Of a stretch of DNA of 36,271 nucleotides, positions 1,614-35,673 are shown in pieces (within the stretch, counting starts at the first letter, position 1; the number at the start of each line of letters is the position of its first letter). Origin of the DNA: a virus (taxonomy: Duplodnaviria; Heunggongvirae; Uroviricota; Caudoviricetes). The notes under the pieces were generated by a model. That model was not told the origin of the DNA, made no database searches, and was given only the letters and a program-made list of their open reading frames with translations. The stretch lies in IMG/VR virus record IMGVR_UViG_2695420676_000012. One strand, 5' to 3'. Both the position numbers and the translations under genes were made by a program.

Positions 1614-1653
1614 GCCCCTATCGTTATAATACGCGGTAGGGGCGTTTTTGTTT
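1614..1653 (+). terminator. terminator-like hairpin plus T-run
   Basis: 'gcccctA...Taggggc' inverted repeat followed by 'gtttttgttt'; overlaps the TTG-initiated extension of the recombinase ORF. Confidence 0.4.
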
Positions 1654-1662
1654 GGAAATGGT

Positions 1663-3342
1663 ATGAAAACTAAACTGTATTCGTATATTCGCTTCTCGTC
1701 TATGCGTCAGAATGATGGTTCGAGTTATGAACGACAAATCAGGATGGCGAGAGAGGTTGCGGCAAAGTATGACCTTGAACTGGTAAATGATTATCAGGAT
1801 CTGGGTGTATCTGCGTTTAAGGGTGCTAACTCCAAAACAGGGGCGCTATCTCGTTTCCTTGATGCAATAGGTAGATCCGTTCCTGTTGGTAGCTGGCTAT
1901 TCATCGAAAACTTGGACCGTTTATCCCGTGCCGATATTGTCAGTGCGCAGGAGTTATTCCTTTCAATCATCCGTAGGGGGATAACCATTGTTACTGGCAT
2001 GGATAACAAGATCTACTCGCTGGATACTGTTACCGCTAACCCGATGGACCTGATGTTCTCCATCCTTTTATTCATCCGTGGTAATGAGGAAAGCCAGACT
2101 AAGCGCAATCGTACTAACTCAAGCGCACTGATTAAGATTAAAGCCCATCAAGAAAATCCCCAGAATCCGGCAGTGGCAATCGAGGAAGTTGGAAAGAATA
2201 TGTGGTGGACTGATACCACTTCCGGTTATGTGTTGCCTCATCCTACATACTTCCCTGTTGTTCAGGAGATTGTGGAATTACGGAAGAATGGACGTTCAAC
2301 CGCCGAGATACTGGATCACCTTAACGAGACATATACACCGCCACCAGCGGTTAGTAATAAGAAGCATTCAAAATGGTCACGGGCAATGGTTGAAAGGTTG
2401 TTCCATACCCGCGCTTTGATTGGTATCAAGGAGGTCTCTGTCGATGGTGTTAACTATGAGTTAAAGGATTATTACCCTCGTGTTATTGATGATGCTACGT
2501 TCTATCACCTTAAGAAAAATATTGGTGCTAGAGCATGGAACTTTGGAGACAAGGAAGAAGTTAAACCGATCCCCCTGCTTAGTGGTATTGGCCTATTGAA
2601 ATGTGATCATTGCGGTTGCGCTATGGTTAAAGTGAAGGGAACGAACAAACGTTCTGACCAGTATCGTTATACATGTGATGCGACCCGTTCACGTAGACTT
2701 GATTGCGAGCATCCAAACTGGAGTTTTCGAGGTGATCAATTAGAGAAAGCTGTATTGCAATTGCTGGCTGATAAAATCTGGATTGCTGAGGACAAGGCTA
2801 ATCCGGTTCCGGCGTTGAAAGTACAGGTTGATGAAATATCACGCAAGATTGATAACCTGATTGCCCTTTCTGCTATGACAGGAGCAACGAAGGAGTTAGC
2901 CGATCAGATTACTACCCTCAATAGCGAGCGTGAAACACTCTACAATCAGATCAAGATGGCAGAAGAGGAAATGTATTCTGTGGACTCTCAAGGCTGGGAG
3001 AAGCTCGCAGAATTTGATTTAGAAGATGTTTATAACGAGGAACGACTAAAGGTCCGGTTTAAGATTAAGCAAGCTCTAAAGCGGATCGGGTGTAGCAGGA
3101 TTGACAGGAATAAAAACTTGTTTGTACTGGAATACATCGATGGAAAGACCCAGAGAGTTGTAATAGAAAATTCAAGAGGAACGAGGAAAGGACAAATCTT
3201 TGTCGATTTGAAAACTATCAATGATAGGCAGATTCTGGAGAGTAACGGGCTTGTTTTGCATCCATGTTTAGACATGCTGACAGATAAGAACTGGAAACCA
3301 GAAGAGGAAATACCAGGTCCATTACAGGAATTTGGAATTTAA
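1663..3342 (+). CDS. large serine recombinase (integrase/resolvase family)
   Basis: N-terminal resolvase catalytic motifs 'YIRFSSMRQ' and 'GVSAF...LFIENLDRLSR'; downstream Cys cluster 'CDHCGCAM...YRYTCD...LDCEH' (zinc ribbon) and coiled-coil segment; track ORF opens at 1648 with TTG, first ATG at 1663. Confidence 0.8.
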   Translation: MKTKLYSYIRFSSMRQNDGSSYERQIRMAREVAAKYDLELVNDYQDLGVSAFKGANSKTGALSRFLDAIGRSVPVGSWLFIENLDRLSRADIVSAQELFLSIIRRGITIVTGMDNKIYSLDTVTANPMDLMFSILLFIRGNEESQTKRNRTNSSALIKIKAHQENPQNPAVAIEEVGKNMWWTDTTSGYVLPHPTYFPVVQEIVELRKNGRSTAEILDHLNETYTPPPAVSNKKHSKWSRAMVERLFHTRALIGIKEVSVDGVNYELKDYYPRVIDDATFYHLKKNIGARAWNFGDKEEVKPIPLLSGIGLLKCDHCGCAMVKVKGTNKRSDQYRYTCDATRSRRLDCEHPNWSFRGDQLEKAVLQLLADKIWIAEDKANPVPALKVQVDEISRKIDNLIALSAMTGATKELADQITTLNSERETLYNQIKMAEEEMYSVDSQGWEKLAEFDLEDVYNEERLKVRFKIKQALKRIGCSRIDRNKNLFVLEYIDGKTQRVVIENSRGTRKGQIFVDLKTINDRQILESNGLVLHPCLDMLTDKNWKPEEEIPGPLQEFGI

Positions 3343-15510: not shown

Positions 15511-15981
15511 TTAGAGTTTCTGGAAAACAGCTTGTTTAACCGGAGCACCATCTACTACAAAGGTGAAGGTACGGCCTACTACAGTATCCTCACCACCAGT
15601 CATGGTAGTTTTAGACAGGAAGCCGTTATAAGCGATATGTACACCAGATTTTTTCGTAGCGTCGATGTAGTAAGCAATTTTAAGCTGTACGCGCTTACCG
15701 TCTTCGGTTGCTTTAATCAGTTTTTCGTGTACTTCGTTACCCGGCATGTAGTTGATCGAAAGTTCGATATCCGGTACAGACATACGACCAACCAGCTTAC
15801 GGTTATACGGACCACCGAAGTTAGGAACATCGACAGTAGAACGTTCTACACCAGTTTCCGGGAAAGCCGCACATTCTGGAATTTCCAGATAGCTTTCACT
15901 GTCAAGATCGGTGTTAGTTACTTCTTCATGCAGAAACAGACCAACGAGGCCACCAGAAAAAATATCAAATTTAGTAGTCAT
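15511..15981 (-). CDS. major tail (tube) protein, lambda gpV N-domain-like, 156 aa
   Basis: Position just upstream of the chaperone pair; strongly biased high-expression codons; 'ELSINYMPGNEVHEKLIKATEDGKRVQLKIAYY' resembles the gpV 'MPGEQG...YKIRF' region (recollection); own terminator. Confidence 0.6.
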   Translation of the reverse strand: MTTKFDIFSGGLVGLFLHEEVTNTDLDSESYLEIPECAAFPETGVERSTVDVPNFGGPYNRKLVGRMSVPDIELSINYMPGNEVHEKLIKATEDGKRVQLKIAYYIDATKKSGVHIAYNGFLSKTTMTGGEDTVVGRTFTFVVDGAPVKQAVFQKL

Positions 15982-16035
15982 TATTCTTTTCCTTCTATTT
16001 TAAACAATAGGGCACATACCCGTAATTCTATTTAT

Positions 16036-16338
16036 TTAGCGGTTGCTCAAACGTCTATAACGAAGATGAGCGATCCCCCTATTTGTGCTAACGGTAATTA
16101 CCGCCCCTTGCGGTGCAATACAAGAATGAATCTGTCCCCAATCATGACCCTTATGGCTTCCAGAAACACACAAACCATGAATAAGCAATTCAGAGTCACC
16201 ACCGCCACCACCGGAAGAATGAGCACAGAATGAAATAGTCCCGAAAGCGTCGGCTGTCCAACCGTTAGGAATATCAAACCATCCTTGATTTGCTTTACCC
16301 GCCCTATTCCCCAAAGCGCCATCTACCCAAAATGCCAT
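16036..16338 (-). CDS. small glycine-rich protein, paralog 3 of 3 (100 aa)
   Basis: Shares 'W....FDIPNGW', Gly-run and 'G..WG...V..G..V' with the two upstream paralogs; start overlaps the upstream stop (TAATG). Confidence 0.55.
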   Translation of the reverse strand: MAFWVDGALGNRAGKANQGWFDIPNGWTADAFGTISFCAHSSGGGGGDSELLIHGLCVSGSHKGHDWGQIHSCIAPQGAVITVSTNRGIAHLRYRRLSNR

Positions 16339-16643
16339 TAGTGCATTCTCCTGAATTTAAAATAATGCAAACTACCTTTACCCAATGTAAAGCTAACGGT
16401 AGCACCAGCGCCAACTAAAGAACTAGCGCCCCAACTCCCAGCATCACCAGCATGATGACCTGATTCAATCAATCCATTTACAGCCAATTCAGAATCAAGA
16501 TCACCAGCACCGTTAATGGCTTCCATATGAGCAAAAACAATTCCGCATGAATCAGTAACCCAGCCGTTGGGGATATCAAAATATCCACCATTAGCCCAAA
16601 TACTAATAGCGTTTGACATTCTTTGATTTATCCATCCAGCCAT
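16338..16643 (-). CDS. small glycine-rich protein, paralog 2 of 3 (101 aa)
   Basis: Same conserved motifs (FDIPNGW, ...TVSFTLG...YFKF) as paralog 1. Confidence 0.55.
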   Translation of the reverse strand: MAGWINQRMSNAISIWANGGYFDIPNGWVTDSCGIVFAHMEAINGAGDLDSELAVNGLIESGHHAGDAGSWGASSLVGAGATVSFTLGKGSLHYFKFRRMH

Positions 16644-16645
16644 AA

Positions 16646-16942
16646 TTAAAACTCCATGAATTTAAAATATTCAACACCACCTTCACCCCCTAAACCAAAG
16701 GAGACGGTGCAGCCAGCAGGAACAAACGAATTTATAGTAGATCCCCAATTGGTCCCACCACGACGACGAGCAACGGTCAAACCATCTACGTTAATATGTG
16801 CATCAGACCACCCACCACCAGCATTATGACGCATTACAGCGACACCAGCACGAGCAGTACCATAGCCGTTAGGAATATCAAATACATGCCATTTTAAAGC
16901 ATCGATTTTAGTATTAATTTCACTACTTACCCAATATCCCAT
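16646..16942 (-). CDS. small glycine-rich protein, paralog 1 of 3 (98 aa)
   Basis: Motifs 'FDIPNGY', 'GGGW', 'TVSFGLGGEGGVEYFKF'; SD 'AAGGA' before ATG. Confidence 0.55.
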   Translation of the reverse strand: MGYWVSSEINTKIDALKWHVFDIPNGYGTARAGVAVMRHNAGGGWSDAHINVDGLTVARRRGGTNWGSTINSFVPAGCTVSFGLGGEGGVEYFKFMEF

Positions 16943-16980
16943 ATAAGAATCCTTAGCGGAGATTTCTCCCCGCTTTCCAA

Positions 16981-19900
16981 TTACCCTAATTTAGCTTCAA
17001 TTGCAGCAAGACGTTCACGAAGAAGTTTATTTTCTTCGCTCATTTCTTGGACCGCTTTAATTAAAAGCGCGTTCACTGCGGAGTTTGAAATTGTTAAAAT
17101 TTCTTCTGGGTTATCAAGACCACCAATTTTTGCGGTTTTAACAGCTTCCGGTAATACCTCTTGTAAATCCTGTGCGATAATACCAATCTCATGACCTATA
17201 ACTTCTCGGTCATTAAGAGATTTAACTTTATCGTAGGTTTTAACTTTGAGTTTATTTACCTTATCCACCGCATTTTCTTCGTAATCTTCAACATTAATTT
17301 TCAGACGACCATCGGAACGAATATAAACATCGTTAAAGTTACCATTACCAGGAGAATAGAAAGTACCATCATGATGAAATTCAAACACCGCTTGAGGATG
17401 ACCAGCCGCTGGCGATGCCTCCGCAGATCCAACGCGAATAATTGCTTGCCCCCAATTTTGAGGAACACGACGCATACCAAAATCGACGGCAGTTGTATAC
17501 CCTTGATTGGTGATTAAACTTCTTCCTTTAATAATTGGATAATAGCTATCTGGTCCTACATAACCATGATCGACAAATATCGGCGCTTCTAATCCCCATT
17601 GATCGCCCCAACCTCCAGATTGGCTAGCAGTCCAACGTTCACCATGAACATAGAATCGAACGTTATTGACATGAGTCATTTCGACACCTTTTGGACTTAG
17701 CGCGATATCACCCGCGTTTGTAATATTGATAGCAGCATTAGTAGCATAGCTATAGAACGCTAATCCATTATCAGCACCACCTTTACCGATATACCAGTTG
17801 TTATTATCAGCACAAGTACCCAGCAAATATATAGACGAATCACCCGTTTCGGCATTCATGACGATTGCGTCAGAACCACGATTAACTTTAAGTTTCCCGA
17901 AGAAGGTGTTTTTAATGGTATTATCACCCAATCGTTCAAATTCTGCGAAAAATCCTTTTGAGTCACGAAGACTTAAAACGTTATTTCGACCTGTATTGCT
18001 TGCCCCCCAATGGACGAGTTCCATATAGTCCATAGATTGACGAGAACCAGCTTTAAAGAAAAGGTTGTCTTCAAGACGGGTACTACCATCAATTCCGAGA
18101 TGCAAACAACGAGCGGTTGCAGTACCACCTAAATACAATCCACCGTCCGCAAAATCATAGCTGAATGGTCTGCGATTATTCCAACTACCAAAAGAATCTT
18201 TTAAATCGGTAGTAAGAATATGGAAGCTAGAACCATCATTGCGTAAAATCAAACCATAGTTACCACCTTTGACAGCCAAACGAGCATTTTCAGATAATGC
18301 AACTTCGCTATTCATTACAATTTTCTGGCCTTTACCGCCAGTAATATGCAATTCACCATCTTCAATCAGGTTTATAGAGTTTTGACCGTTATCGTTCCAC
18401 CAAATAAAATCTTTGGTTGTTCCATCACCAAAACCAAACCAACCATTACGAACATCTTGTCCAGTGCGATAATCCATGAAATTAAAATGACTTGATTCGT
18501 TTGGTCCTCGACGAATATCAATACCAGAATTTCCAGTAACACCGCCATCCAATGTTAATTTCTTGACATGTAACCCGGATGTTGCTGTCAGCAATAATTC
18601 CTGATTTGTATCTTCGTATCCAGTAGCAAGACGATATGCGTTATCATCAACTGTCTCATGCCAGATAGTGGCAGGAGCAGAACTACGGAAGCGACGCAAC
18701 ATTTTCTTAGCATTTGTTTGCTGTTCGTTCAAATGCTCAATGTCGTATTGGCCTTGATGGTTTCCAGCAAAATTTAACGTTCCACGGTTGCTAAAGTTAT
18801 TGAACGATGAAATGTTAAGAGCATCAAAAATTTCATCTGCAACAGGTTTTTCACCACCCAGATATTCAGGAGTATCCAACAGGTTTAAAGAAACACCACC
18901 GGAAGAAACTTGATATTCTGCTAAAACAAATCCTGTATGTGCACCGTAGTAAGCGTAAAGATCGTAATTGTCGCCATCGGTTGGAATAGCGCAAAAATGT
19001 TGTTCATGATGCCAAATAGTATAATACGCATTGAATACAACACCTTTCGGGCTATTGTTGCCGCATCGAATCACCAATTCGATAATATTGGCTTGTCCAT
19101 TATGTCCTACGTTATAACCGTTACCACCAACCAAACGGATCTTAGCCGTGCGACCGTGTTGTTGTGGCATTGTCAAAGTGCCTAGTTTAAACCAACCACC
19201 CTCGATACCAAAATTAAGCGTCTTCTGGAACAGTCGGTCAATTTCTGCTTTCGAATATGCGCCAATTTCAGCCGGAGTAGGTTTATCACCTTCATGATAC
19301 ATGCGGTGAGAATATGCCAAATGTCCCAATTCATCATAGCCGTATGTTCTTACCGTATGAACCGGATTAGACCCATAAGTGAACTCAAAACCACGAGCAT
19401 GATTAACGCCGGATGGGTGCGGAACATGCAAGATCATTGCAATATGACCCGCCAGGTCATTCATGCGAAATGCACCAAAGTAATCAAGATTAAGAGCACT
19501 CGGATCATCAAAAGGGTTTGCGGTCTTAGACAGCAAATAGCCATCAGTGCAAGTGTTTACGTGCTTTTTGATGTACTTGCCATCACTTGATCCATCGGCT
19601 GCATCAATACGGCTTTCTAAACGTGCAAGTTCGGAATCAGTGTAAGACTTGTTATTGTCAACTTTGCTATGAATTGCTGAATTTTTGGCTTCAACATCAC
19701 GGGTTAATGCTGCGACGTTATCCGCTGCCTCTTGCTTATTGGCTGCAATCACACCAGTAAGGTTATTGTAGGTGTCAGTTAACTGATTTTCCGCATAGGC
19801 GTGATTTGCTGCGATAGTGCGGTCAGTTTCTGCCTTAATCAAATCAACTTTGTCATTGATTGCTTTGTGATTGCTTACGATGGTTGCATCGGTACGGGAT

Positions 19901-20391
19901 TTAATATCATCAACTTTTTTATTGATGCGGGTGTCCAGTTCCTGAGTTGCTACAGCAGCCGCATTTTTATTAGCGTTGATGGTATCCGACAATTCAGCTT
20001 TAACACCAGCAAGATCGGAAGCAGCTTTATTTTTATTGGCCTCGATTGTCGCGTCGGTTTCGCGTTTAATTACATCAACTTTATTGTTAATTTCTGCGTG
20101 ATTTGCTGCGATGGTTGCATCAGTAGTTTGTTTAATTTCATCTACTTTAGCGTGAATATTGCGGCCATTTACTGCAATTGTGCTATCCAATTCTTGTTTG
20201 TTAGCATCAACTTTAGATTCTAGTGCCGCGTGAGTTTCAGGAGAAACAGAGATTTGAACTACTTCATGATCTCGGTCTTTGGTAAAAATAACATGGTCTT
20301 TAAGGTTGATTGCTACCTCACCGACCTGTAATTGTTCCGGCGTTGGCTTTTTGCCAGAAACATTAGTTCGTTTAAATTGGATTGATTGCAT
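16981..20391 (-). CDS. tail fibre with C-terminal intramolecular chaperone (peptidase S74-type) domain, 1136 aa
   Basis: C-terminal 'SDGRLK...GIIAQDLQEVLPEAV...LLRERLAAIEAKLG' matches the autoproteolytic chaperone module of T5 L-shaped fibre / endosialidase-type fibres; N-terminal ~22-aa 'KVD.IK..TDATI.ANH' repeats; SD 'GAGGTGA'. Confidence 0.8.
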   Translation of the reverse strand: MQSIQFKRTNVSGKKPTPEQLQVGEVAINLKDHVIFTKDRDHEVVQISVSPETHAALESKVDANKQELDSTIAVNGRNIHAKVDEIKQTTDATIAANHAEINNKVDVIKRETDATIEANKNKAASDLAGVKAELSDTINANKNAAAVATQELDTRINKKVDDIKSRTDATIVSNHKAINDKVDLIKAETDRTIAANHAYAENQLTDTYNNLTGVIAANKQEAADNVAALTRDVEAKNSAIHSKVDNNKSYTDSELARLESRIDAADGSSDGKYIKKHVNTCTDGYLLSKTANPFDDPSALNLDYFGAFRMNDLAGHIAMILHVPHPSGVNHARGFEFTYGSNPVHTVRTYGYDELGHLAYSHRMYHEGDKPTPAEIGAYSKAEIDRLFQKTLNFGIEGGWFKLGTLTMPQQHGRTAKIRLVGGNGYNVGHNGQANIIELVIRCGNNSPKGVVFNAYYTIWHHEQHFCAIPTDGDNYDLYAYYGAHTGFVLAEYQVSSGGVSLNLLDTPEYLGGEKPVADEIFDALNISSFNNFSNRGTLNFAGNHQGQYDIEHLNEQQTNAKKMLRRFRSSAPATIWHETVDDNAYRLATGYEDTNQELLLTATSGLHVKKLTLDGGVTGNSGIDIRRGPNESSHFNFMDYRTGQDVRNGWFGFGDGTTKDFIWWNDNGQNSINLIEDGELHITGGKGQKIVMNSEVALSENARLAVKGGNYGLILRNDGSSFHILTTDLKDSFGSWNNRRPFSYDFADGGLYLGGTATARCLHLGIDGSTRLEDNLFFKAGSRQSMDYMELVHWGASNTGRNNVLSLRDSKGFFAEFERLGDNTIKNTFFGKLKVNRGSDAIVMNAETGDSSIYLLGTCADNNNWYIGKGGADNGLAFYSYATNAAINITNAGDIALSPKGVEMTHVNNVRFYVHGERWTASQSGGWGDQWGLEAPIFVDHGYVGPDSYYPIIKGRSLITNQGYTTAVDFGMRRVPQNWGQAIIRVGSAEASPAAGHPQAVFEFHHDGTFYSPGNGNFNDVYIRSDGRLKINVEDYEENAVDKVNKLKVKTYDKVKSLNDREVIGHEIGIIAQDLQEVLPEAVKTAKIGGLDNPEEILTISNSAVNALLIKAVQEMSEENKLLRERLAAIEAKLG

Positions 20392-26338: not shown

Positions 26339-28246
26339 TTAGAACGATGTTACCCAGCTACGGCCTCTATTTGGGCGTCTGGCGATGTTTTGACGTTGCG
26401 GTCGTGTGATTGGCTTAGTTTCTTCGATTTGCTCGTCAGATTGCGATTCAGGAGCTTTTACGGGTTCTTCTTTAACGCTGTTTAAGCTGTCTTTCATTGC
26501 AATGAGTTTATCCCATGACATTTTTGAAAGGACGTAGCGAGAAGCAGCATAGCTATAAACCAGACAGTCGAGAGCCTCGTTTCGGGTACTACCTGGATTT
26601 TTCACCCAACGAACACCAGTAGTAGTACGCTTGATGGATTCACTCAAAAGCTGATCGAGATAATCATCAGGAACGGTTTCTGATATTTCTAAGCCAATAT
26701 GAGGATTATCTTTCAGGTTTCTAACCAGCATTTCACGAACAGCGGATTTACCAACGTTAACGCCCAGCATAAGCAATTCATGACCACCTGTGCGGGTAGG
26801 TTTAACCGGAATCACTGGAGCATTACCAGATGAACTACCTTTAATAGCGTGTAGGTTCTTCCACTTACCACAAATACGGTATCCGGCTTGAGTGAATCGA
26901 CCGTTTGATGTATCGAGGAAGCTGGCGAGCATTGGCACACGTTCACCATTAACGTTATAGAATTTGGTTTTCTTGAAGTTAACCAGACGATCCCATACAG
27001 GTGATTCGTATCGTTCACAGTTATGATCGTAAAAGCTACGGTGATCCAGAATGTAAACCTTATCTTTCGCTACACCTAAGATGGTAGATTCTGCGCGATC
27101 CAATTGCTGGTCAATTCCTGAGCACAAGAAAATCACGTCATCAGGGATATTCTCGATAGAAACATCTGTTTTGAGTTGTTCCAGTTCATTTGCTTCTACT
27201 GCCGTGTCCTGATCATCGTATACCTTGCCTAACACGGTGTTATAAAATGATTGTAAATCAAAGGATTGCCACGCATGACTAAAATCAACCACACAAGCGC
27301 GGATCGTGCTGAAAGGTGAATACAGACGGCTAATCCAGAATCCTGCTACTTCACTTTCACGGGTTGCTCTCCACTCGCCTTGCGCTACTGCCCTGATTCG
27401 TTCCCCTTCTGTCCATGCGTTCTTACAGTGGGGGCAAATATAACGAGCGGTATCAGGATCGGGTAAGTTCTTACCATCGATGTTACGCCATTCAAATTGA
27501 ACGTTTTCCCACTCGATCACCTGGTGTTCCCCGCAATGAGGACACGGAACAAAAAACATACGCATATCGCTTGATAACCATTGCTGGTTAATGCTTCCGA
27601 GCTTACTGGTCGGGGTACTGGATACGACTAATCGGCCTTCATCGCCAAAGGTAGTTAAACGGTTAGCAGCCAGTGCCACCGGATCACCTTCTTCTGAGGC
27701 TGTAGCAGCATCGATTTCGTCTAGTAGTCCGACCTTTGCGGTCTTACCACGTAGGGTCGATGGACTGGTTAGCGATACCATGTACAGGAAGTGATTCGTT
27801 TTTAGCTGTAGCTGGTTATTGTTGTTAACCGCATTGCGATCATTCTTGTCTGTAACCACGTCTTTTAATGCATCACATGCTTCGATAGACGGTCGGATCT
27901 TACCAGCGAGATATTGAGACATTTCTTTAGCGGTTGATTGTCCGATAATCATATTGCATGGATCGTTAGCCATCTGGTTAAACAGGATGCCGTTCAAGAT
28001 GGTAGTCTTTCCGATCTGCGCACTGGTCATCAGAACATACTTTTTCTTGTTCTCAAGGAAAGGAGCATCAATCATACCTTTCTGGAATGACAGCAATTTA
28101 ACTTTATCCCCAGCTTGAGGACCATCTACCAGCACCATATTAGCTTCGCACCATTCAGAAGGAAGGAGTTTAGGCGGTGGCGTAATATATTTGGCTGCAT
28201 TTCTGAGAATCTTTTTTAATTTGGCCTTATTAGAAATTAGTTTCAT
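26339..28246 (-). CDS. terminase large subunit, lambda gpA family, 635 aa
   Basis: Walker-A-like 'AQIGKTT'; 'PCPHCGEHQ' and 'YICPHCK' zinc-finger-like motifs; 'GIDQQLDR'; '[14 protein letters not shown]'; order and spacing match gpA as I recall it. Confidence 0.9.
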
Positions 28247-28333: not shown

Positions 28334-28936
28334 ATGCTAATTAATCAGCAACAAAGAGATGAATTAGAATTAGCCTTGTCTTGTACCGATCATGAATATC
28401 GTTTGCCAGTAAAACATAAGCACTTAAGGACTGATTACACAACATCCGGTTTTAGCCGTGAGGAAGCGAAAGAGATTTTAATAGAATTTTACCGTGATAA
28501 TGGTTATACAGACGTTCACAACTTCTTTAAGAAGCATAGAACATCACATACAGAGTTTCGGAGAGTCCGAGATTGGTTTGATTTTGATATCAAGCGTTAT
28601 TATCGCATTGATGACGGTCCTATCTATCGGTTGCAGTGGAAGCCGATCCGAGAAGTGTTGAAACAGAAGAGATTGAATCACGCTATTACACGCTATCGTA
28701 ACGAGGCTTTTAAGAAAGGCTATGGTGATACAAGGGAATTGTTTGTAGAACTCGCTAACGTGCGATATAGCCACTATTACAACGATCCTAAGTCCTTCTT
28801 CGAAGTGCTGCGCAAGGTTGATATAAGTCGGGGTACATACTATTCACGGTTGAAGAAGTACGGGATTAAGGCAGAGTTCTTTATGTCGGTTGACGATGGA
28901 GAACTTTTTCCTATAAAATGTAAGTCCTCTAAATAA
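28334..28936 (+). CDS. basic Tyr/Arg-rich protein with C-terminal HTH-like module, 200 aa
   Basis: C-terminus '[25 protein letters not shown]' resembles the two small HTH proteins at 28966 and 32781; SD 'AAGGGGG'. Confidence 0.5.
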
Positions 28937-28965
28937 AGGTGAACATTCACTTTAATTTGGAGAAA

Positions 28966-29196
28966 ATGACTATGACTACTAAAGCTACTCGCGGTCGCCC
29001 TGCCCGTTTTAATCGTGAACAACTGGCAGCGATTGTAAAAGCGTACTATCAAGCACCGAAAGGTAAAGAGAACAAAGAACGGGTATTAAATGAGCATGGC
29101 TTATCTATAGCCCAGCTATACAAATCCCTACATAAAGTTGATTTGAAATTCTTTGTTCAGGTTGACGGTGAAATGGTAGAAGCAACAGGAATTTGA
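28966..29196 (+). CDS. small HTH DNA-binding protein (RP.KF.RE...HTH module), ~76 aa
   Basis: 'GRPARFNREQLAAIVKAYY...HGLSIAQLYKSLHK...VQV'; start at ATG with SD 'GGAGAAA' (track ORF opens with GTG at 28939); paralog of 32781-32960. Confidence 0.5.
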   Translation: MTMTTKATRGRPARFNREQLAAIVKAYYQAPKGKENKERVLNEHGLSIAQLYKSLHKVDLKFFVQVDGEMVEATGI

Positions 29197-29500: not shown

Positions 29501-30334
29501 TCAGATCCCAAAATCAACAAGGGAAATTACGTTACCTGATTCACGAATCTGTTTAGCAGCTTTGTTTTGAATCAGAATAGTGTTATTTGGCTGCGGCAGT
29601 TTAAGAGTTGCTTTCTGTTCTTCTTCCAAAACGCCCAATTCAACCAGCACCGGAAGAACATCAACAGTAAACTCAAGCTGGTAATGAGCATTCATGCGGC
29701 AGAAAGACAGAGAAGAGTCATTAGCAACATACCCACACGGCTTGTTATTTTCATCATAGACGCGCTCAATGTAGCCAGCAGTACGTAAGGCCGTCAGTGC
29801 TTGTTTAACCTTCGTAGCGCCCTTTTTAGCGCCTAACAGACGTGTCATAGAATGGCTATCTACGGATTTGCGAATGTGTAGCTCAATCAGTTTTTTATTT
29901 TTGCGTTTTTCATCTAATGCCAGTTCGATCCAGTCGGTTTCTTCAAAGTCCGCATACGGGTTAACAGGAGTATTATTGGCGGTTTTCAGTTTCTCTTCCA
30001 GATAATTCCAACGGTCAACCAGTTGGCGAGTAAATTCCGGTACGTTTTGAGCAATCAAGACAATCGAATCTAAGCGACCTTGCTCACCCTCAAACACATA
30101 ATCTTTAACAGTAACAGCAAACCCTAAGTTATTGATTTTTTCGAAATTCTGCGTTGCAGGTTTTCGGATAACTTGGCGTTCAACCAGTCGGTTCATAGAA
30201 GTTTCAAGGTTTGAAAAACGAACTCCAATAAGGTCGGCAATTTCACGAAGAGTCATTTTTGCAACTTCGTTATCAACAACCAGAGACACGGAAGCAGTTT
30301 TAACAGCAGTATTCATAGTAGTAACAGTATTCAT
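29501..30334 (-). CDS. Rha-like phage regulatory protein (antirepressor-like), 277 aa
   Basis: N-terminal 'MTLREIADLIGVRFSNLETSMNRLVERQVI' resembles the Rha N-terminal DNA-binding motif; SD 'AAGGGG'. Confidence 0.45.
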   Translation of the reverse strand: MNTVTTMNTAVKTASVSLVVDNEVAKMTLREIADLIGVRFSNLETSMNRLVERQVIRKPATQNFEKINNLGFAVTVKDYVFEGEQGRLDSIVLIAQNVPEFTRQLVDRWNYLEEKLKTANNTPVNPYADFEETDWIELALDEKRKNKKLIELHIRKSVDSHSMTRLLGAKKGATKVKQALTALRTAGYIERVYDENNKPCGYVANDSSLSFCRMNAHYQLEFTVDVLPVLVELGVLEEEQKATLKLPQPNNTILIQNKAAKQIRESGNVISLVDFGI

Positions 30335-30423
30335 AGTAAAATTCCCCTTAAACGGTTTAGTGATATTGATCCTCCTAGTTCCGGCATCACCACCGGAACA
30401 TTTTTATTTATGATAGAAATTTA

Positions 30424-30756
30424 TTACCAATCGATTTCTACTTGGTCTTCTTCATAATAAGGAATCGCATATTCATAACGCCAATTTTCGATGATTTCAC
30501 GTTCTTCATTAGTAAGAAGGTGATTGTTAACTGGAGTCGCATTGTGATTACCAGCTTCGAATTGCTCGCGAACTTCCAGCATTGCATGAATACCAGTTAA
30601 GGTCATCAGATCAAACGGAACATGCATACTACGGGAGATAGTTTCACGGGATACACCCCAATCATTTTCTACATGGCTAGGGGTTACAGAAACGGTTTTG
30701 CCGGAGATTTTAACAGTCCAGTCATACAGGGATTTAGTGATGGTAAATTCTTTCAT
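30424..30756 (-). CDS. hypothetical protein, 110 aa
   Basis: ORF with SD 'AAGAGGA'. Confidence 0.5.
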   Translation of the reverse strand: MKEFTITKSLYDWTVKISGKTVSVTPSHVENDWGVSRETISRSMHVPFDLMTLTGIHAMLEVREQFEAGNHNATPVNNHLLTNEEREIIENWRYEYAIPYYEEDQVEIDW

Positions 30757-30802
30757 GTTACATCCTCTTTACAAATCTAGGTCAAATAGATTCAAAGTTG
30801 TC

Positions 30803-30830
30803 AAGTGCGATAATCATAAAAAAGTCAGAA
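30803..30830 (-). promoter_or_regulatory. sigma70-like promoter candidate (minus strand) inside an inverted TTGTCAA/TTGACAA pair
   Basis: Minus-strand 'TTGACA'-17 nt-'TATGAT'; plus strand shows 'ttgtcaa-tacccc-ttgacaa' inverted repeat at 30825-30847. Confidence 0.3.
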
Positions 30831-30876
30831 ATTTTTGTCAATACCCCTTGACAAGACGCCAAAGGGTTGACCTAAC

Positions 30877-31335
30877 TTACAGCATATCTAAGCCTTCATC
30901 GTAACCGTAGAAGCCACCGTGAGAAGAGAAACAGATTGGTGTGTAGTCGTCGTCATCTTCGTCTTGTTCATCTTCTTCTGGGGCTTCCTGAGCGGTTTCT
31001 TTACCATAATCAGCCATAATCTGGTCAAGATCGGCGATCCCATAGTAAGAGCCTAAATCAACGTCATATTCACGAACATCAAAAGGCAGGTCATCACGAA
31101 CAATAATTGCTGGAATATCGTTGTATTGAAGACGACCCTCATCAGTAAAACAGTCGATGATCACAGTAGGACGACCATTTCGTTTTAAAGCGTAGAAAGC
31201 AGTTGAGTAGTTGGAGTCTTCGGAATGACGAATGATGTTATAACCACGATGAGCGAAAACTTCTAGCATATGGAAGTTACCATAGTTTTCAGAGTCCAGA
31301 CCCAGAAGTACGAAAGGAGTTTTAGTATTGATCAT
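30877..31335 (-). CDS. hypothetical protein with strongly acidic C-terminal tract, ~152 aa
   Basis: Start placed at ATG with SD 'AGAGGA' (track ORF extends to 31365); C-terminal 'EEDEQDEDDDDY'. Confidence 0.5.
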   Translation of the reverse strand: MINTKTPFVLLGLDSENYGNFHMLEVFAHRGYNIIRHSEDSNYSTAFYALKRNGRPTVIIDCFTDEGRLQYNDIPAIIVRDDLPFDVREYDVDLGSYYGIADLDQIMADYGKETAQEAPEEDEQDEDDDDYTPICFSSHGGFYGYDEGLDML

Positions 31336-31355
31336 AGTGGTATCCTCTAAAAGAA

Positions 31356-31386
31356 AGTGAATCAAGTAAGTTCACTATTATTTATA
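31356..31386 (-). promoter_or_regulatory. TATAAATA box followed by GTGAA/TTCAC hairpin upstream of the 30877-31335 gene
   Basis: Minus-strand 'TTATAAATAatAGTGAActtacttgaTTCACT...AGAGGA...ATG'; same architecture as 4414-4456 and 32508-32537. Confidence 0.4.
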
Positions 31387-31588
31387 AAGAGAAAATTCTT
31401 GTTATTATGAAAGGTGATTGTATTCAGTCGGGCAAAGCCCTCCTTCATGATTTGATTAAATTATGATCAAAACGAAGAAGTATCTTTAGAATATAATAAT
31501 CTTTCTTTTGGAGAAATAATAATCAGGAAGTAATTTAGCAACCGAAGGTTGCAATCCCGAAGGGATACCAATACCTTTCATGATCATT

Positions 31589-31846
31589 AAAGTGATCTAG
31601 AATCATCTAGTAACCAGTTAACTACTATTATCTTCAAAGTGATTATTACTATCTTTCTAGAATCAGTTAGTAACTAGTATTAAATCCCTTTCGAGAAAAT
31701 CCTTTCAGAAGTGATTCTCGATGCCACGCAGTGGCGTCGCAGACGTTTGAGAGTGAGCGAAGCGAGCGAGCAAACTAGTTAATTCCTTCTAAGACCATCT
31801 AGTATCATCTAGTTTAAATTAGTTGTTACTAGAAGTAATTGGTTAG
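31589..31846. repeat. CTAG-rich imperfect direct/palindromic repeats in an ORF-free region
   Basis: 'aaagtgat' x3 (31589, 31636, 31708); 'tctagaatca(t/g)(c/t)tagtaac(c/t)agt' x2 plus variant 'tctaagaccatctagtatcatctag'; palindromes 'agttaact', 'actagt'. Confidence 0.45.
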
Positions 31847-32017
31847 CGCTTCGCGCAGTCGGGCTACGCCCTCCTAATTATCTTTTTGGTTATTTGTTGT
31901 TTTTAGTTTTACACATGAGCGTAGCGAATGTGTTATATAATATCTATGCACGCCCGATCCCCCGCTTTTACCCCTCGCTAAGTTAATGTTTTATAAAGAG
32001 TTTTTATCACCAATCCT

Positions 32018-32216
32018 TTTCAGGGGCAAAAATGAGGGGCAAAAATTAGATTTTCAGGGGCAATTATTGGCATTTCAGGGGCAAAAATGAGGGGCAAAAT
32101 CACTGTTTCCCAGAATTTCAGGGGCAAAAATAGTAGGTTTCAGGGGCAAAAATGGGATAGTAGAATCTTGGGGATTTTATTCGGGGGCAAAAATTCAGAA
32201 TTTCAGGGGCAATTCC
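32018..32216. repeat. direct-repeat (iteron-like) array: 9 copies of (T)TCAGGGGCAA(A)AAT core
   Basis: 'GGGGCAA' at 32023, 32036, 32057, 32078, 32091, 32121, 32143, 32184, 32206; exact 27-nt duplicate 'tttcaggggcaaaaatgaggggcaaaa' at 32018 and 32073; spacings 13/21/21/13/30/22/41/22 nt. Confidence 0.8.
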
Positions 32217-32408
32217 CATCAAATATTTTGATAGAAAATTCTTGTATATTATTTAATCAAAAAATCACCAAAAAGTGGCGTAAGTTAATGATTTAAAAAG
32301 AATTGTCAAAAGGTCTCCGTGCTATAATAGGTTATAAAGGTTGATAATCCTGATCTACAATTTTCAAACAAAAATTTTGATAGTCATTTCTCGCTTAGGT
32401 CAAGTGCA

Positions 32409-32437
32409 TTGACAACTGTCAAGGATTATTTTATACT
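32409..32437 (+). promoter_or_regulatory. consensus sigma70 promoter with palindromic -35 (TTGACA-AC-TGTCAA)
   Basis: 'TTGACA' (32409-32414), 17-nt spacer, 'TATACT' (32432-32437); -35 lies in a perfect inverted repeat. Confidence 0.55.
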
Positions 32438-32507
32438 TTTTCTCACTGGTGGGGGTTGAAATTTTCTAAACAGTCCCCATATAGATGATAAGCAAGAATT
32501 TCCACGT

Positions 32508-32537
32508 TATAAATACATGTGTGAAATGATTGTTCAC
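32508..32537 (+). promoter_or_regulatory. TATAAATA box followed by GTGAA/TTCAC hairpin
   Basis: 'TATAAATA' 32508-32515, hairpin 'gtgaa-atgattg-ttcac' 32521-32537. Confidence 0.4.
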
Positions 32538-32574
32538 TTCTGAAAATCTCCTGATTCACTGCTAATTCATACAT

Positions 32575-32600
32575 CACTGGTTAGATATACAGTGCTTTTT
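32575..32600 (+). terminator. terminator-like hairpin plus T-run in the leader region
   Basis: 'cactg-gttagatata-cagtg' followed by 'cttttt'. Confidence 0.4.
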
Positions 32601-32658
32601 CGGTTGAATATTGTACGAATTGATTAATAATTAATCTTCTCTTTAGCAATTCGTGCTC

Positions 32659-32686
32659 CCACTGATCGGATATACAGTGGTTTTAC
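32659..32686 (+). terminator. terminator-like hairpin plus T-run
   Basis: 'ccactg-atcggatata-cagtgg' followed by 'tttta...gggttttc'. Confidence 0.4.
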
Positions 32687-32707
32687 AGGGTTTTCTGACA
32701 ATCATTT

Positions 32708-32747
32708 TATAAATACAAGTGTTCAGAGCGAAATGCTCTTTTTTTAA
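32708..32747 (+). promoter_or_regulatory. TATAAATA box followed by hairpin plus T7 run (attenuator-like) before the 32781 gene
   Basis: 'TATAAATA' 32708-32715; 'agagc-gaaat-gctct' 32725-32739; 'ttttttt' 32740-32746. Confidence 0.4.
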
Positions 32748-32780
32748 GAAATTATTAATCCACATGTGAGGAATCGACTG

Positions 32781-32960
32781 ATGGCTAGACCTGTTAAGTT
32801 CACTCGTGAAATGATTGTTGATATTGCTAAACGCTTTTACAGCGACACTGAGCGAGGCGGGGAAAACTTCTTTAAGAAGGAAGGAATTGATAGAAGCGGA
32901 TTCTACAAGCTAATGAAGAAATACGAAATTCAGGTAAAGATTAACGTTCAAGTTTGTTAA
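32781..32960 (+). CDS. small HTH DNA-binding protein, paralog of 28966-29196 (~59 aa)
   Basis: 'ARPVKFTREMIVDIAKRFY...GIDRSGFYKLMKKYEIQVKINVQV'; start at ATG with SD 'GAGGA' (track ORF opens with GTG at 32766). Confidence 0.5.
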   Translation: MARPVKFTREMIVDIAKRFYSDTERGGENFFKKEGIDRSGFYKLMKKYEIQVKINVQVC

Positions 32961-33074
32961 TCCACTTTCACTGAGAATTATATGATGGCTTTAAAAAAGA
33001 AAAAGCCTCCCTTGTTGCAGCAAAGGAGGCTTGAAATGAACAATTAAAACTAACTTTCCACAGGAGTATTTATA

Positions 33075-34037
33075 ATGTTATTTTCCGCTAACTTTTTCAC
33101 TAACGAAGTAACCAACGCTAAAGCAGTTATCAAATTTGGCACCGAAGCAAACAAGAAGATTCAGCCGAAAGTTGTTGCTCATGTTTCCTTTGCGCAGCAG
33201 AAATCCGCTTTCGCTGGCTTTAAAGCACATCGTGAAGCACTGATCGCGGCTGGCTTTGGTGTTGACGGTAAACTGCCTAACGGCATTCGTAAAGCAATCG
33301 ACCGCGTTAAACCTGCTAAAGACGTTGCAGTAGACCACATCGTTACTTTCACCGTTAAGAACTCTTCTGAACTGTTCCACCTAGTGATTGCTGGTGATAC
33401 TGCTATCGTTTCCGCTCCTAACATGGATTTTCAGGATACCGCTGATTGCAACATTACCTTTGGTCGTCGTAAAGAAGTTACCGGAAAAGCTAAACTGAAC
33501 TTCACCAAATCCGGCAATCCTTACTTTGCTGTATTCTTTAACAGCCACGCTACTGAGAAAGAAGTAGTAGAACTGGTTGCATATGAAGGTGAAGAAAAAG
33601 CACGTATTGAATCTTGCGACGCTTTCGTAGAACTGGAAGCACAGGTTAATGCTGTTTCTCCGGTTGCTGTTGAAGATCGTTTCTCTGCACTGGAAGCACA
33701 GATCGCAGAACTGAAAGCTGCACTGAAAGAAAAAGACCAGATCATCGAAGCACAGAAAGCTGAGATTGAAGAACTGAAAGCTAAAGAAGTTGCTCCGGTT
33801 GCTGTTGAAGCAGATCAGGAAGTTGAATCTAAAGACTTCTTTACTCAAGCGGTTGAATCTAAAGACAAACAAGCTCTTTGGATTCTGCTTAACGAAAAGC
33901 GTACTGTTGCAGACGTTGCAGAATGGAACAAATACCTGATTAAGAAAAATGGTTCTTCCGTTCAATTCATCGATTTAATGACAGTTAAAGTTTTTGATGC
34001 GTTCGAAAATGTGTTCGACGTTCGCAAAGCAGCTTAA
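33075..34037 (+). CDS. hypothetical abundant protein with coiled-coil and internal 'SPVAVE/APVAVE' repeat, 320 aa
   Basis: Strong high-expression codon bias (ctg, cgt, gct, gaa, aaa); SD 'GGAG'; downstream of the consensus promoter. Confidence 0.6.
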   Translation: MLFSANFFTNEVTNAKAVIKFGTEANKKIQPKVVAHVSFAQQKSAFAGFKAHREALIAAGFGVDGKLPNGIRKAIDRVKPAKDVAVDHIVTFTVKNSSELFHLVIAGDTAIVSAPNMDFQDTADCNITFGRRKEVTGKAKLNFTKSGNPYFAVFFNSHATEKEVVELVAYEGEEKARIESCDAFVELEAQVNAVSPVAVEDRFSALEAQIAELKAALKEKDQIIEAQKAEIEELKAKEVAPVAVEADQEVESKDFFTQAVESKDKQALWILLNEKRTVADVAEWNKYLIKKNGSSVQFIDLMTVKVFDAFENVFDVRKAA

Positions 34038-34063
34038 TTTTTAATTTAATTGGAGACCCTACT

Positions 34064-34405
34064 ATGGCAACTTTAAACGAAAAAGCACTGTCCCGTAAAA
34101 CTCTGAAAGAGAAAAACATGATTCTTTCTGAAACGCTAAAACAGACTAATGCTGAGTGTGAATTTTTGACCATTAAACTTTCGATTAAAGAGAAAGAATG
34201 CAATGAGCTAATGGAAAAGTACAAATCCTTACATGATAATTACGTGAAACTTGGTGAAGGATTTAAAGCCATGCAAGAAGACTACAAGAAATCATTGAGG
34301 GAACAGATTAAACTACTTGAAGAATTGAAAGGGTATAGAGAAAAGTCCGTTAAAGAAAAGAAAATACAGAAGATGAAAAACAAAGGATTGCGTCTTGTTG
34401 CTTAA
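34064..34405 (+). CDS. Lys/Glu-rich coiled-coil protein, 113 aa
   Basis: ORF with SD 'GGAGA'; heptad-like charged sequence. Confidence 0.55.
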   Translation: MATLNEKALSRKTLKEKNMILSETLKQTNAECEFLTIKLSIKEKECNELMEKYKSLHDNYVKLGEGFKAMQEDYKKSLREQIKLLEELKGYREKSVKEKKIQKMKNKGLRLVA

Positions 34406-34410
34406 GACAA

Positions 34411-34437
34411 TAAAAAAAGGGACTCCGAAGAGTCCCT
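34411..34437. terminator. hairpin with A-run/T-run flanks (bidirectional terminator candidate)
   Basis: 'gggactc-cgaag-agtccc' preceded by 'aaaaaaa' (T-run on the minus strand). Confidence 0.4.
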
Positions 34438-34502: not shown

Positions 34503-34541
34503 TTTAAAGCCAGAAAAATAACCGCCCCGAAGGGCGGGAGG
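34503..34541 (-). terminator. Rho-independent terminator for minus-strand transcripts from the terS-like block
   Basis: Minus transcript 'cccgccc-UUCG-gggcgg' followed by 'uuauuuuucu'. Confidence 0.5.
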
Positions 34542-35121: not shown

Positions 35122-35673
35122 TTAAGACACATCAAATTCATCGTCTTCTTCTGGTTCTTGTTCCGGTTCATCGATTAATGGTAATTCTTCTTCCTCGTCA
35201 TCGCCTAAATCCGCATTTTCGAACAAGTCCCCTACTTCATTTAAACGACGCTCGATGATCTCCCTTAGCTTATTCTTCAATGTTTTCTGATCAGTGGCAG
35301 ATTCGAGAATTTCTAAAGCGTCGATTGTGGCGATCTGCAAAATAGTCTGTTTCACCTTTCCGCAATATTCCGCTAGCTCCTGCTCAACATACCCGACCGG
35401 AATCAGGAGATTCATTGCTTCCTGGTTCTCTCGTTCGATAGCGTCAGCCTCGCCTCGCGCCTTGCGTAGTTTCTCTTGTTGGATTTGGGCTTGTACATCC
35501 ACTTCCCGCAAAGGATTGATTATGTTGGTGAGTATCCACTTAATGGCTAGATCGCGAGGACAACGGCGGGTATTAGAATTGAATGGCAAACCGCGTTCTT
35601 TCCATTTAGTGACAGCCGGAAGTGAATAACCATACATTTTCGATAATTCTGTTAGTGTAATTTCTGCGGACAC
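35122..35673 (-). CDS. Nu1-like small terminase subunit candidate (winged-HTH N-terminus, acidic C-terminus), 183 aa
   Basis: N-terminal 'LTELSKMYGYSLPAVTKWKERGLPF...LAIKWIL' resembles my recollection of lambda Nu1 'KKQLADIFGASIRTIQNWQEQGMPV...VIKWY'; size matches Nu1 (~181 aa); GTG start with SD 'GGAGGA'. Confidence 0.45.
   Translation of the reverse strand: MSAEITLTELSKMYGYSLPAVTKWKERGLPFNSNTRRCPRDLAIKWILTNIINPLREVDVQAQIQQEKLRKARGEADAIERENQEAMNLLIPVGYVEQELAEYCGKVKQTILQIATIDALEILESATDQKTLKNKLREIIERRLNEVGDLFENADLGDDEEEELPLIDEPEQEPEEDDEFDVS

Follow-up and report, generated by a model that had tools for sequence, protein, structure and literature searches.

A modular orphan protein of an Escherichia coli prophage family, with an N-terminal domain that co-varies with an upstream iteron array: a candidate origin-binding initiator

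The DNA analysed here, IMG/VR record IMGVR_UViG_2695420676_000012 (36,271 bp; henceforth the window), is a complete prophage and an uncharacterised Escherichia coli element with no cultured relative. We focus on the 320-residue protein, henceforth the target, encoded by the plus-strand gene in its early arm, which an initial annotation had listed as a codon-optimised, likely very abundant early protein of unknown function. The N-terminal domain (N-domain) of the target is one of four types that occupy the same slot in related prophages, and the type of N-domain matches the sequence of an upstream array of direct repeats (iterons) in every locus where the two could be compared. Judged by comparison of these loci, co-variation of this kind is what one classically sees for a DNA-binding specificity domain together with its sites. 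The absence of any family match stands, but the label of unknown function can be narrowed toward a sequence-specific, probably origin-binding, protein; we propose, giving it about an even chance, that the target is an iteron-binding replication-origin initiator that works like the O protein of phage lambda but is unrelated to it.

The comparison covers 40 informative family loci (32 distinct and eight metagenomic) from E. coli genomes, Logan/ENA contigs, IMG/VR and JGI metagenomes. In every locus examined, the slot that follows a small gene for a helix-turn-helix (HTH)-like protein of 59 residues (p59) is filled by a 305-345-residue protein of constant plan, comprising an N-domain, a coiled coil of the form 'APV.VE...ELKA', an acidic linker, and a swappable C-terminal module (C-module). 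The N-domains are of the types N1 (beginning 'MLFSANFF', that of the target), N2 ('MKNSKRITFN'), N3 ('MKNVKIWFYDN'), and N4 ('MKQNNFSITVY'). N3 is still weakly linked to N1 by HMMER (35 % identity over residues 64-320); N1 has no detectable similarity to N2 or N4, and hhalign of the N1 profile against these two types found no homology. Each locus also carries an array of direct repeats in the same orientation about 1 kb upstream, and the repeat sequence follows the N-type in 40/40 cases: AGGGGCAAAAAT with N1 (24/24 loci), TAGTGTAGGTTT with N2 (14/14), GGAATCTAGGGGA with N3 (1/1), and CGGGGA(T/A) with N4 (1/1). No iteron sequence of one type occurs with another N-type among the loci compared, and a metagenome scan, which contributed the eight further loci, returned no further N-type.

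In the window, AGGGGCAA has nine matches against 0.9 expected, eight of them in the array (32022-32212) and none inside the target gene, and the repeat scan reported the array repeats nowhere else in the genome. Block comparison with the N2 loci L030 and L042 delimits the exchanged segments: positions 30269-31714 are homologous, 31715-32216, which hold the iterons, are unrelated, 32217-33075 are 90 % identical up to the ATG of the target gene, 33075-34409 are again unrelated, and homology resumes from 34410. The two variable segments, the iterons lying 860-1050 bp upstream of the target gene, are thus separated by elements that assort independently of them; p59 alleles 2 and 7 and leader types I and II each occur with both N1 and N2, and an identical (100 %) p59 allele is found with both N-types. 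In the divergent locus L004, whose protein is 52 % identical to the target, the spacers between iterons differ and the 12-mer is unchanged. Early proteins encoded elsewhere in the loci have alleles common to N1 and N2 (Rha277, 99.6 %; p162, 94-95 %; p200, 87-98 %), and no protein partner that co-varies with the N-type was found among the alleles of Rha277, p162, p200, and the small terminase TerS. The stretch that abuts the iterons is the most AT-rich 80 bp of the region; it belongs to the conserved block that is independent of allele type, which fits an element used by host factors.

Window positions 31540-31880 contain four TCTAGAATCATCTAGTAAC-like repeats beside several short GC-rich hairpins in succession, the loops of which read GAAG, GCAG, or TACG. 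Repeats and hairpins of this kind are also present in the N2-type cassette, and they may be cos or terminase-binding sites or single-strand initiation signals.

The target itself has three parts (Table 1). Its middle is a coiled coil with an internal repeat, as had been noticed from the sequence, and this repeat can be seen both in the protein, at the peptide level, and in the DNA, where it takes the form of two pairs: 33647-33675 and 33782-33810 (29 nt, 86 % identical), encoding '..V(S/A)PVAVE', and 33687-33719 and 33750-33782 (33 nt, 82 % identical), encoding 'EAQ.AE..ELKA'. AlphaFold predicts one long helix over residues 199-237, with the repeat in and around it, and one heptad register has hydrophobic residues at 9/13 a/d positions; a natural allele, P0024, lacks precisely one of the repeat units, the reading frame being kept. 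The type A C-module of the target is exchangeable with a type B ('..MLHDEMYGTNFSYCQ') on an N-terminal part that is otherwise 97-100 % identical, and the C-module type assorts independently of both the N-type and the attachment (att) site. The full-length AlphaFold model (predicted local distance difference test score, pLDDT, of 59) has a beta-rich N-domain, a helical coiled-coil middle, and a small helical C-domain; the N-domain modelled by itself with AF2 is, at moderate confidence (predicted template modelling score 0.74, pLDDT 69), a 10-strand, 3-helix alpha/beta domain. In a metagenomic recombinant (P0123), known from a single 1.5-kb metagenome scaffold, an ORF6N domain of known phage type replaces the N-domain before the same coiled coil and C-module.

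Searches with the target agree with the initial annotation in finding no recognised motif and no homology to a known housekeeping phage protein. Pfam (E<=1), PHROGs, NCBIfam, and PADLOC, run on the target, the N2-N4 alleles, and all neighbours, returned only weak coiled-coil matches; in particular, Pfam detected no Phage_rep_O, ANT, KilAC, P22_AR, ORF6N, Bro-N, or KilA-N domain and no NTPase domain in the target, and no ANT/KilAC, P22_AR_N, or P22_AR_C in its relatives, Pfam and NCBIfam gave no match to Rep_3 or another Rep family, PHROGs none to a replication family, and PADLOC matched neither the target nor the genes directly beside it to a defence system. The target also had no counterpart in 50,697 phage records or 72,556 plasmids, searched by megablast and tblastn, and a profile search of PDB sequences gave a best E of 0.47. 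The structure predictions suggested for the protein yielded models of moderate confidence with no credible Foldseek match: with the full-length model against PDB and BFVD and the N-domain model against PDB, nothing fell below E = 0.04 and template modelling scores were <=0.26; no winged-helix fold was detected with these moderate-confidence models (no match at E<0.07), and the top matches were Bet v 1/START-like at a probability of 0.1-0.2, which we do not treat as evidence. An exhaustive HMMER scan of 1.84 billion cluster representatives retrieved only 12 proteins, amounting to about four real clusters, and those with genomic context all belong to the same prophage family with the same gene order; a profile of the C-module returned one fragment only, and scans of GTDB species representatives, made with the profile of the target as well as with TerL, turned up no relatives. 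Across the databases searched, the target represents a new orphan family of modular proteins.

The codon usage of the gene had been described as the most biased in the window, and this is borne out by a codon adaptation index (CAI) of 0.661, the top value among 38 window open reading frames (ORFs) (mean of the others 0.328, standard deviation 0.096; z = 3.5), followed by a tail-tube-like ORF (15511-15981, 0.61) and the major capsid protein gene (0.50); the weights followed the Sharp & Li E. coli set, the absolute values being approximate and the ranking robust. The counts match the codons that had been listed (ctg, cgt, gct, gaa, aaa): CTG serves for 12/17 leucines, GAA for 28/30 glutamates, AAA for 28/33 lysines, GTT for 27/35 valines, and CGT for 7/9 arginines, with AGA, AGG, CGA, and CGG all unused, and the 46 alanine codons include 24 GCT and 18 GCA. 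The CAI rises to 0.83 over residues 166-250. N1 (window and L004), N2, N3, and N4 alleles in E. coli-type prophages have a CAI of 0.56-0.72, against 0.23-0.38 for the genes on either side, and the sole low score measured (0.37) is that of L002, an N1-like allele on a short, low-GC contig. As all the E. coli-type alleles measured are codon-optimised, the optimisation seems tied to the slot and not to a single allele, and strong translational selection appears to characterise the locus at least in E. coli-type hosts. The ratio of nonsynonymous to synonymous substitution rates (0.08-0.17 against 17 alleles) indicates purifying selection and thus a real functional protein. Its translation signals also belong to the conserved surroundings: the Shine-Dalgarno sequence and the spacer after it lie within the block common to all allele types, which stops exactly at the ATG, and the A/U-rich spacer GTATTTATA is kept in the distant relatives L002, L003, and L004. 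Codon usage suggests an abundant protein, as had been supposed.

The C-terminus offers a further clue to the fate of the protein. Tails of the LAA and LVA type are ClpXP degrons. A terminal -AA is found in most alleles: the target ends in ..VRKAA, N2 in ..DTNYSAYAYAA, N3 in ..IREAA, N4 in ..LLDFAA, P0122 in ..RRAA, and P0129 in ..LKAA; the N2 tail closely resembles the ssrA tag ..NDENYALAA. The -AA tail of the target is degron-like, and the protein may be unstable; taken with the extreme codon optimisation, this leads us to propose synthesis in a burst followed by removal through ClpXP. The gene at the downstream position is unrelated between loci (113, 305, 77, 333, and 80 residues in the window, L003, L004, L033, and L042, respectively), yet the products all end in (P)TLR(L/I)VA. 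It is missing from some loci that combine N1 with the type B module.

Under the proposed initiator function, the basic N-domain would recognise the nine AGGGGCAAAAAT iterons, the coiled coil would make the target at least a dimer, and the exchangeable C-module would be the effector end. As part of the early rightward transcription unit the gene would yield the protein in a fast, large burst; cooperative loading of this protein onto the phased iterons would open the adjoining 20 %-GC stretch, after which the C-module would bring in host replication proteins and ClpXP would remove the target. The assignment to an origin is suggested by nine phased repeats in one orientation, their abutment on the AT-rich stretch, a slot that is never empty, the lack of another recognised candidate initiator, and the likeness to lambdoid O and SaPI Rep proteins, modular initiators in which an N-terminal part for iteron specificity and a C-terminal part for partner binding are exchanged between mosaic relatives. 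When the early-region ORFs were scanned with Pfam, PHROGs, NCBIfam, and PADLOC, nothing matched save a Rha/Ant-like regulator; neither they nor the genes annotated by RefSeq in the related copy of the element in E. coli PEC41 included a recognised replication gene, and there was no P-like or helicase-loader gene among the ORFs scanned, which is why we assign recruitment of host proteins to the C-module.

Lambda O is the closest functional parallel. It is a 299-residue protein encoded in the early rightward operon, unstable and degraded by ClpXP, with an N-terminal, winged-helix iteron-specificity domain, a flexible acidic linker, and a C-terminal part that recruits a partner; ori-lambda has four phased iterons inside the O gene next to an AT-rich stretch, and initiator and iterons are matched in a type-specific manner among mosaic relatives. 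The target is similar in size, in the succession of N-domain, linker, and C-terminal part, in the phased direct repeats beside an AT-rich stretch, in its early rightward unit, and in its proposed removal by ClpXP, and N-type and iteron type match in 40 loci across an independently assorting spacer, which constitutes comparative evidence. It differs in having no sequence similarity to O, a predicted beta-rich N-domain instead of a winged helix, nine rather than four iterons placed 860-1050 bp upstream and not within the gene, a coiled coil, no recognised P-like gene, and codon adaptation far above that of neighbouring genes. The Rep_3 initiators of plasmids (RepA of pPS10 and pSC101, pi of R6K, RepE of F, and TrfA of RK2) have iterons near the rep gene, a dimerisation element, and control by chaperones or proteases, traits with observed or proposed counterparts at the present locus, and their origins share with the candidate origin here the direct iterons at about two-helical-turn spacing and the adjoining AT-rich region. 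In contrast to these, the target has no Rep match in Pfam or NCBIfam, no winged helix detected in the moderate-confidence models, and no match in the 72,556 plasmids, DnaA boxes are not enriched in the window, and a terminated leader and another gene separate it from the iterons. Mutually exclusive allelic pairs of an initiator specificity domain and matching iterons are known from the Rep-ori modules of Staphylococcus aureus pathogenicity islands (SaPI) and phage-inducible chromosomal islands (PICI). The present pairs likewise occur within one mobile-element family; however, SaPI Rep is a helicase with a primase partner, whereas the target lacks an NTPase motif or domain match and is half the size.

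Several points weigh against the initiator. The target, as far as the moderate-confidence models go, has no sequence or fold similarity to a known initiator or DNA-binding domain; codon optimisation above that of the capsid and tail-tube genes is unusual for an initiator and not explained by that role alone; the N3 and N4 pairings come from one locus each; and the iteron cassette and the gene lie only about 860 bp apart, leaving room for residual linkage, though the spacer recombines freely. Canonical DnaA boxes are not enriched in the window, three perfect TTATCCACA boxes being present only in L004. The N1 alleles with a type B module end in ..FSYCQ instead of -AA, and the degron idea is therefore not universal. 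The orientation of the genes in the window confounds the use of GC skew to mark an origin.

The same co-variation would also be expected of an iteron binder that is not an initiator, such as a regulatory or architectural protein of high abundance (a repressor or activator with multiple sites that determines type-specific immunity or incompatibility, a protein that is nucleated at the iterons and acts in handcuffing, in DNA coating, or in a partition-like way, or an origin accessory like p6 of phi29). Very high codon adaptation is more readily understood for a DNA-binding protein with a stoichiometric or architectural role than for a catalytic initiator, two divergent transcription units flank the array, and the Mu repressor, with its N-terminal DNA-binding domain, coiled coil, and stability-controlling C-terminus, resembles the plan of the target. 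We nevertheless consider this possible but unlikely: the iterons overlap no predicted promoter, the nearest being about 190 bp away; the promoter, together with its operator-like palindrome, is conserved whatever the iteron type, so that immunity is apparently not set at the iterons; a phage that integrates via a serine integrase needs no partition system; and the origin function must come from some gene, none having been recognised. Mere linkage on one recombination module, with the protein doing something unrelated such as early anti-defence or host takeover, appears quite unlikely given that the 860-bp spacer recombines freely and yet 0/40 loci are mismatched, and that the 12-mer has been kept in a locus with a 52 % identical protein and diverged inter-iteron spacers. 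In its favour one can cite segments less than 1 kb apart, the single loci for N3 and N4, the absence of a recognisable DNA-binding fold, and the fact that abundant early orphan proteins are often anti-defence factors; against this last point, there is no PADLOC match and the slot is never empty.

The layout of the region, with a promoter, a conserved terminated leader, the 59-residue HTH gene, and the 320-residue gene, would also fit a regulator of the antirepressor type in a module like immI (P22 arc-ant/sar; P1 or N15 c4/CA RNA-icd-ant), that is, a burst protein that inactivates a repressor. Like the P22 immI and P1/N15 antirepressor operons, which combine a strong promoter, a terminated leader, a small DNA-binding gene, and a protein of about 300 residues, the locus has a probable antisense element at the ribosome-binding region, namely a conserved terminator on the antisense strand with a promoter-like TATAAATA pointing at it from there. 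The N-terminal DNA-binding domains and shuffled C-modules of the ORF6N/Bro-N/KilA-N regulators are a related parallel, and ORF6N, which is typical of Ant/Bro/KilA-type proteins, does precede the same coiled coil and C-module in P0123. The N-domain of the target, however, matches none of these domains, the chimera is one 1.5-kb scaffold, the protein has no homology to ANT, P22_AR, or KilAC, and the N-domain tracks a DNA cassette and not a repressor allele, no candidate repressor co-varying with it and the Rha277, p162, and p200 alleles being common to N1 and N2; we judge an antirepressor very improbable. Lowest of all we place an abundant virion-assembly or recombination protein (scaffold, decoration, or single-strand annealing) encoded outside the late operon, which we regard as extremely improbable. 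A CAI above those of the capsid and tail-tube genes, a protein rich in coiled coil, and a capsid fused to an S78 protease with no separate scaffold gene recognised would speak for it, but the gene lies in the early arm on the strand opposite to the structural genes, its unrelated N-domains interchange while the capsid genes stay conserved, which would be intolerable for a capsid-binding protein, the iteron pairing is left unexplained, and PHROGs gave no head, packaging, or recombination match.

Other candidates were tried and rejected. TerS (Nu1-like) was considered as the iteron binder, but its alleles do not track the iteron type, and p59 was set aside for the same role as one of its alleles is found with different iterons. 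A recombination directionality factor with a C-module matched to the integrase is contradicted by the presence of C-type B at both the ycdX and the hicB sites, and a moron or defence gene at the prophage end by the slot that is always filled and the missing PADLOC match. By inspection, no HUH motif of a rolling-circle Rep is visible in the conserved residues.

If the pairing of N-domain and iterons does reflect binding, both the origin and the initiator of this family would be identified, the presence of the genome's strongest translational selection on a non-structural gene would be explained, and the few known initiator families would be joined by a new domain for iteron recognition, apparently novel in fold, along with three alternatives not homologous to it. 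The pairs would also form a natural set of orthogonal protein/DNA-site combinations reusable as parts. If it does not reflect binding, codon usage would still place the gene among the orphan early genes with the strongest expression in a common prophage of E. coli. More speculatively, the locus might represent an unrecognised class of phage origin-recognition proteins, in which fold-unrelated plug-in N-domains matched to iteron cassettes are joined to a common coiled coil and interchangeable tails with ssrA-like degrons and are expressed with codon adaptation like that of ribosomal proteins; the action would be stoichiometric and self-limiting, unlike that of a classical catalytic initiator, the protein coating or nucleating on the origin in large numbers before being destroyed and the pairs setting incompatibility groups among co-resident prophages; we consider this wider proposal unlikely. 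The module may additionally be gated by the leader RNA of about 300 nt and an antisense RNA of about 60 nt at the ribosome-binding site.

Table 1. Positions in the window of the target gene, the proposed origin elements, and other features discussed in the text
Feature	Position	Strand	Remarks
Large serine integrase	1648-3342		
Structural block	3416-28246	-	gpA-type terminase, lambda-type portal, S78 protease-capsid fusion
gpA large terminase gene	26339-28246	-	
Variable iteron cassette	31715..32216		swapped together with the target gene; block comparison with L030, L042, L037, L033
Iteron array	32022..32216	+	9 direct copies of AGGGGCAAAAAT-like 12-mers, spacing 13-41 bp, mostly 21-22 bp; proposed N-domain site
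AT-rich stretch, 20 % GC	32217..32300		abuts the iterons; candidate DNA-unwinding element; conserved across allele types
Sigma-70 promoter TTGACA-17-TATACT	32409..32437	+	11/12 consensus matches; conserved in L003, L004, L007
Non-coding leader, type I	32444..32745	+	about 300 nt; conserved intrinsic terminator at its end (hairpin 32725-32739 and T run)
p59, 59-residue HTH-like ORF	32781..32960	+	always precedes the target slot; alleles assort independently of target type
12-bp hairpin and T run	33003..33032	-	intrinsic terminator for antisense transcription; on the plus strand, a hairpin in the 5' untranslated region of the target; z = -3.4
Shine-Dalgarno AGGAG	33062-33066	+	8 nt before the ATG
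Target coding sequence	33075..34037	+	320 residues, ATG start, TAA stop; allele type N1 with C-module type A
N-terminal domain	33075..33569	+	residues 1-165, basic (isoelectric point 9.6), beta-rich; proposed iteron-specificity domain
Coiled coil with internal duplication	33660..33794	+	residues ~196-240; length differs between alleles
C-terminal module type A	33849..34034	+	residues ~259-320, '..WNKYLIKKNG..VRKAA'
Downstream coiled-coil ORF, 113 residues	34064..34405	+	swapped together with the target; C-terminus ..GLRLVA
GC-rich hairpin flanked by A run and T run	34418..34437		end of the plus-strand unit; listed by the scan as a minus-strand terminator
Nu1-like small terminase (TerS)	35122-35673	-	

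Between the iterons and the target gene lie the elements that probably control its expression (Table 1). The gene is in the early/regulatory arm downstream of a near-consensus sigma-70 promoter, but this promoter, to which high expression had been attributed, is about 640 nt upstream of the gene and not adjacent to it, with a conserved intrinsic terminator (32725-32745) and p59 in between. The interposed terminator, small HTH gene, and hairpin suggest that expression is probably conditional and not simply constitutive. The -35 hexamer falls inside a perfect palindrome, TTGACAACTGTCAA (32409-32422); L003, L004, and L007 retain this palindrome as TTGACAnnTGTCAA or in a closely similar form, and it is likely to be an operator for a repressor common to the whole family.

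The type I leader is 77-95 % identical across members with swapped flanking genes, which makes it better conserved than the adjoining coding sequence, and in other members it is replaced by an unrelated type II leader carrying a 66-residue ORF. RNAalifold found compensatory changes in 4/63 pairs only, which is too weak to call a structure, and Rfam returned no match to the leader, as the Rfam gathering scan and a tRNA scan returned none in the whole window; it may be a regulatory RNA of the P4 CI, P1 c4, or N15 CA kind. The p59 protein has paralogous HTH units elsewhere in the early arm, one an 85-residue ORF (28939-29196) and one within a 200-residue ORF (28334-28936; 'RP.KF....SR..YY/FYKL.KKY'), and no Pfam family matched these units.

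The hairpin at 33003-33032 is kept in L002, L003, and L004 with paired changes. The element TATAAATA occurs in seven copies in the window against 2.8 expected (at 943, 4449(-), 31379(-), 32508, 32708, 33067(-), and 35927); all seven are in the intergenic 12 % of the window and point at a downstream gene or structure, and 4/7 are followed by ..(A/T)GTG(A/T). It looks like a phage-specific (-10-like) promoter element, reminiscent of the late-promoter consensus of T4. The minus-strand copy at the target overlaps the spacer between the Shine-Dalgarno sequence and the ATG and points at the 33032-33003 hairpin, both being kept in L002, L003, and L004. From this arrangement (minus strand, within 32995-33074) we predict an antisense RNA of about 60-65 nt against the 5' untranslated region of the target, analogous to P22 sar/ant.

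DNA of the target region is present in 63/5,426 complete E. coli genomes (~1 %), and the prophage family extends to Shigella and E. fergusonii; among cultured phages there is no close relative, the portal having a best match of 36 %. The related copy in E. coli PEC41, in which the 3-kb target region is 94 % identical, starts directly after a truncated ycdX and ends with the ORF that stops at window 36271, beside the other ycdX fragment; other family copies are integrated in hicB. Insertions are seen in single prophage copies: that of PEC41 (L001) has an rve-domain gene and the insertion sequence IS5 (L001 16290-17336, 1550-2530), and L037 has a 413-residue transposase-like ORF (1778-3019).

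The entire early region separates the TerS gene from that of the gpA large terminase, a distance of about 7 kb; after the TerS gene come two ORFs for small membrane proteins and, at 34537 and 34437, two terminators on the minus strand. Beside the integrase, the ORF at 981-1322 has an N-terminal hydrophobic segment and weak PADLOC matches (E ~5e-4) to accessory modules of DRT defence systems, which are probably coiled-coil noise. Part of the tail-fibre gene (16981-20391, 1136 residues; window ~16000-19500) has 83-97 % DNA identity to the distal subunit of the long tail fibre in T4-like E. coli phages, KFS-EC among them, which indicates that virulent myoviruses and a temperate, siphovirus-like prophage have recently exchanged a receptor-binding module.

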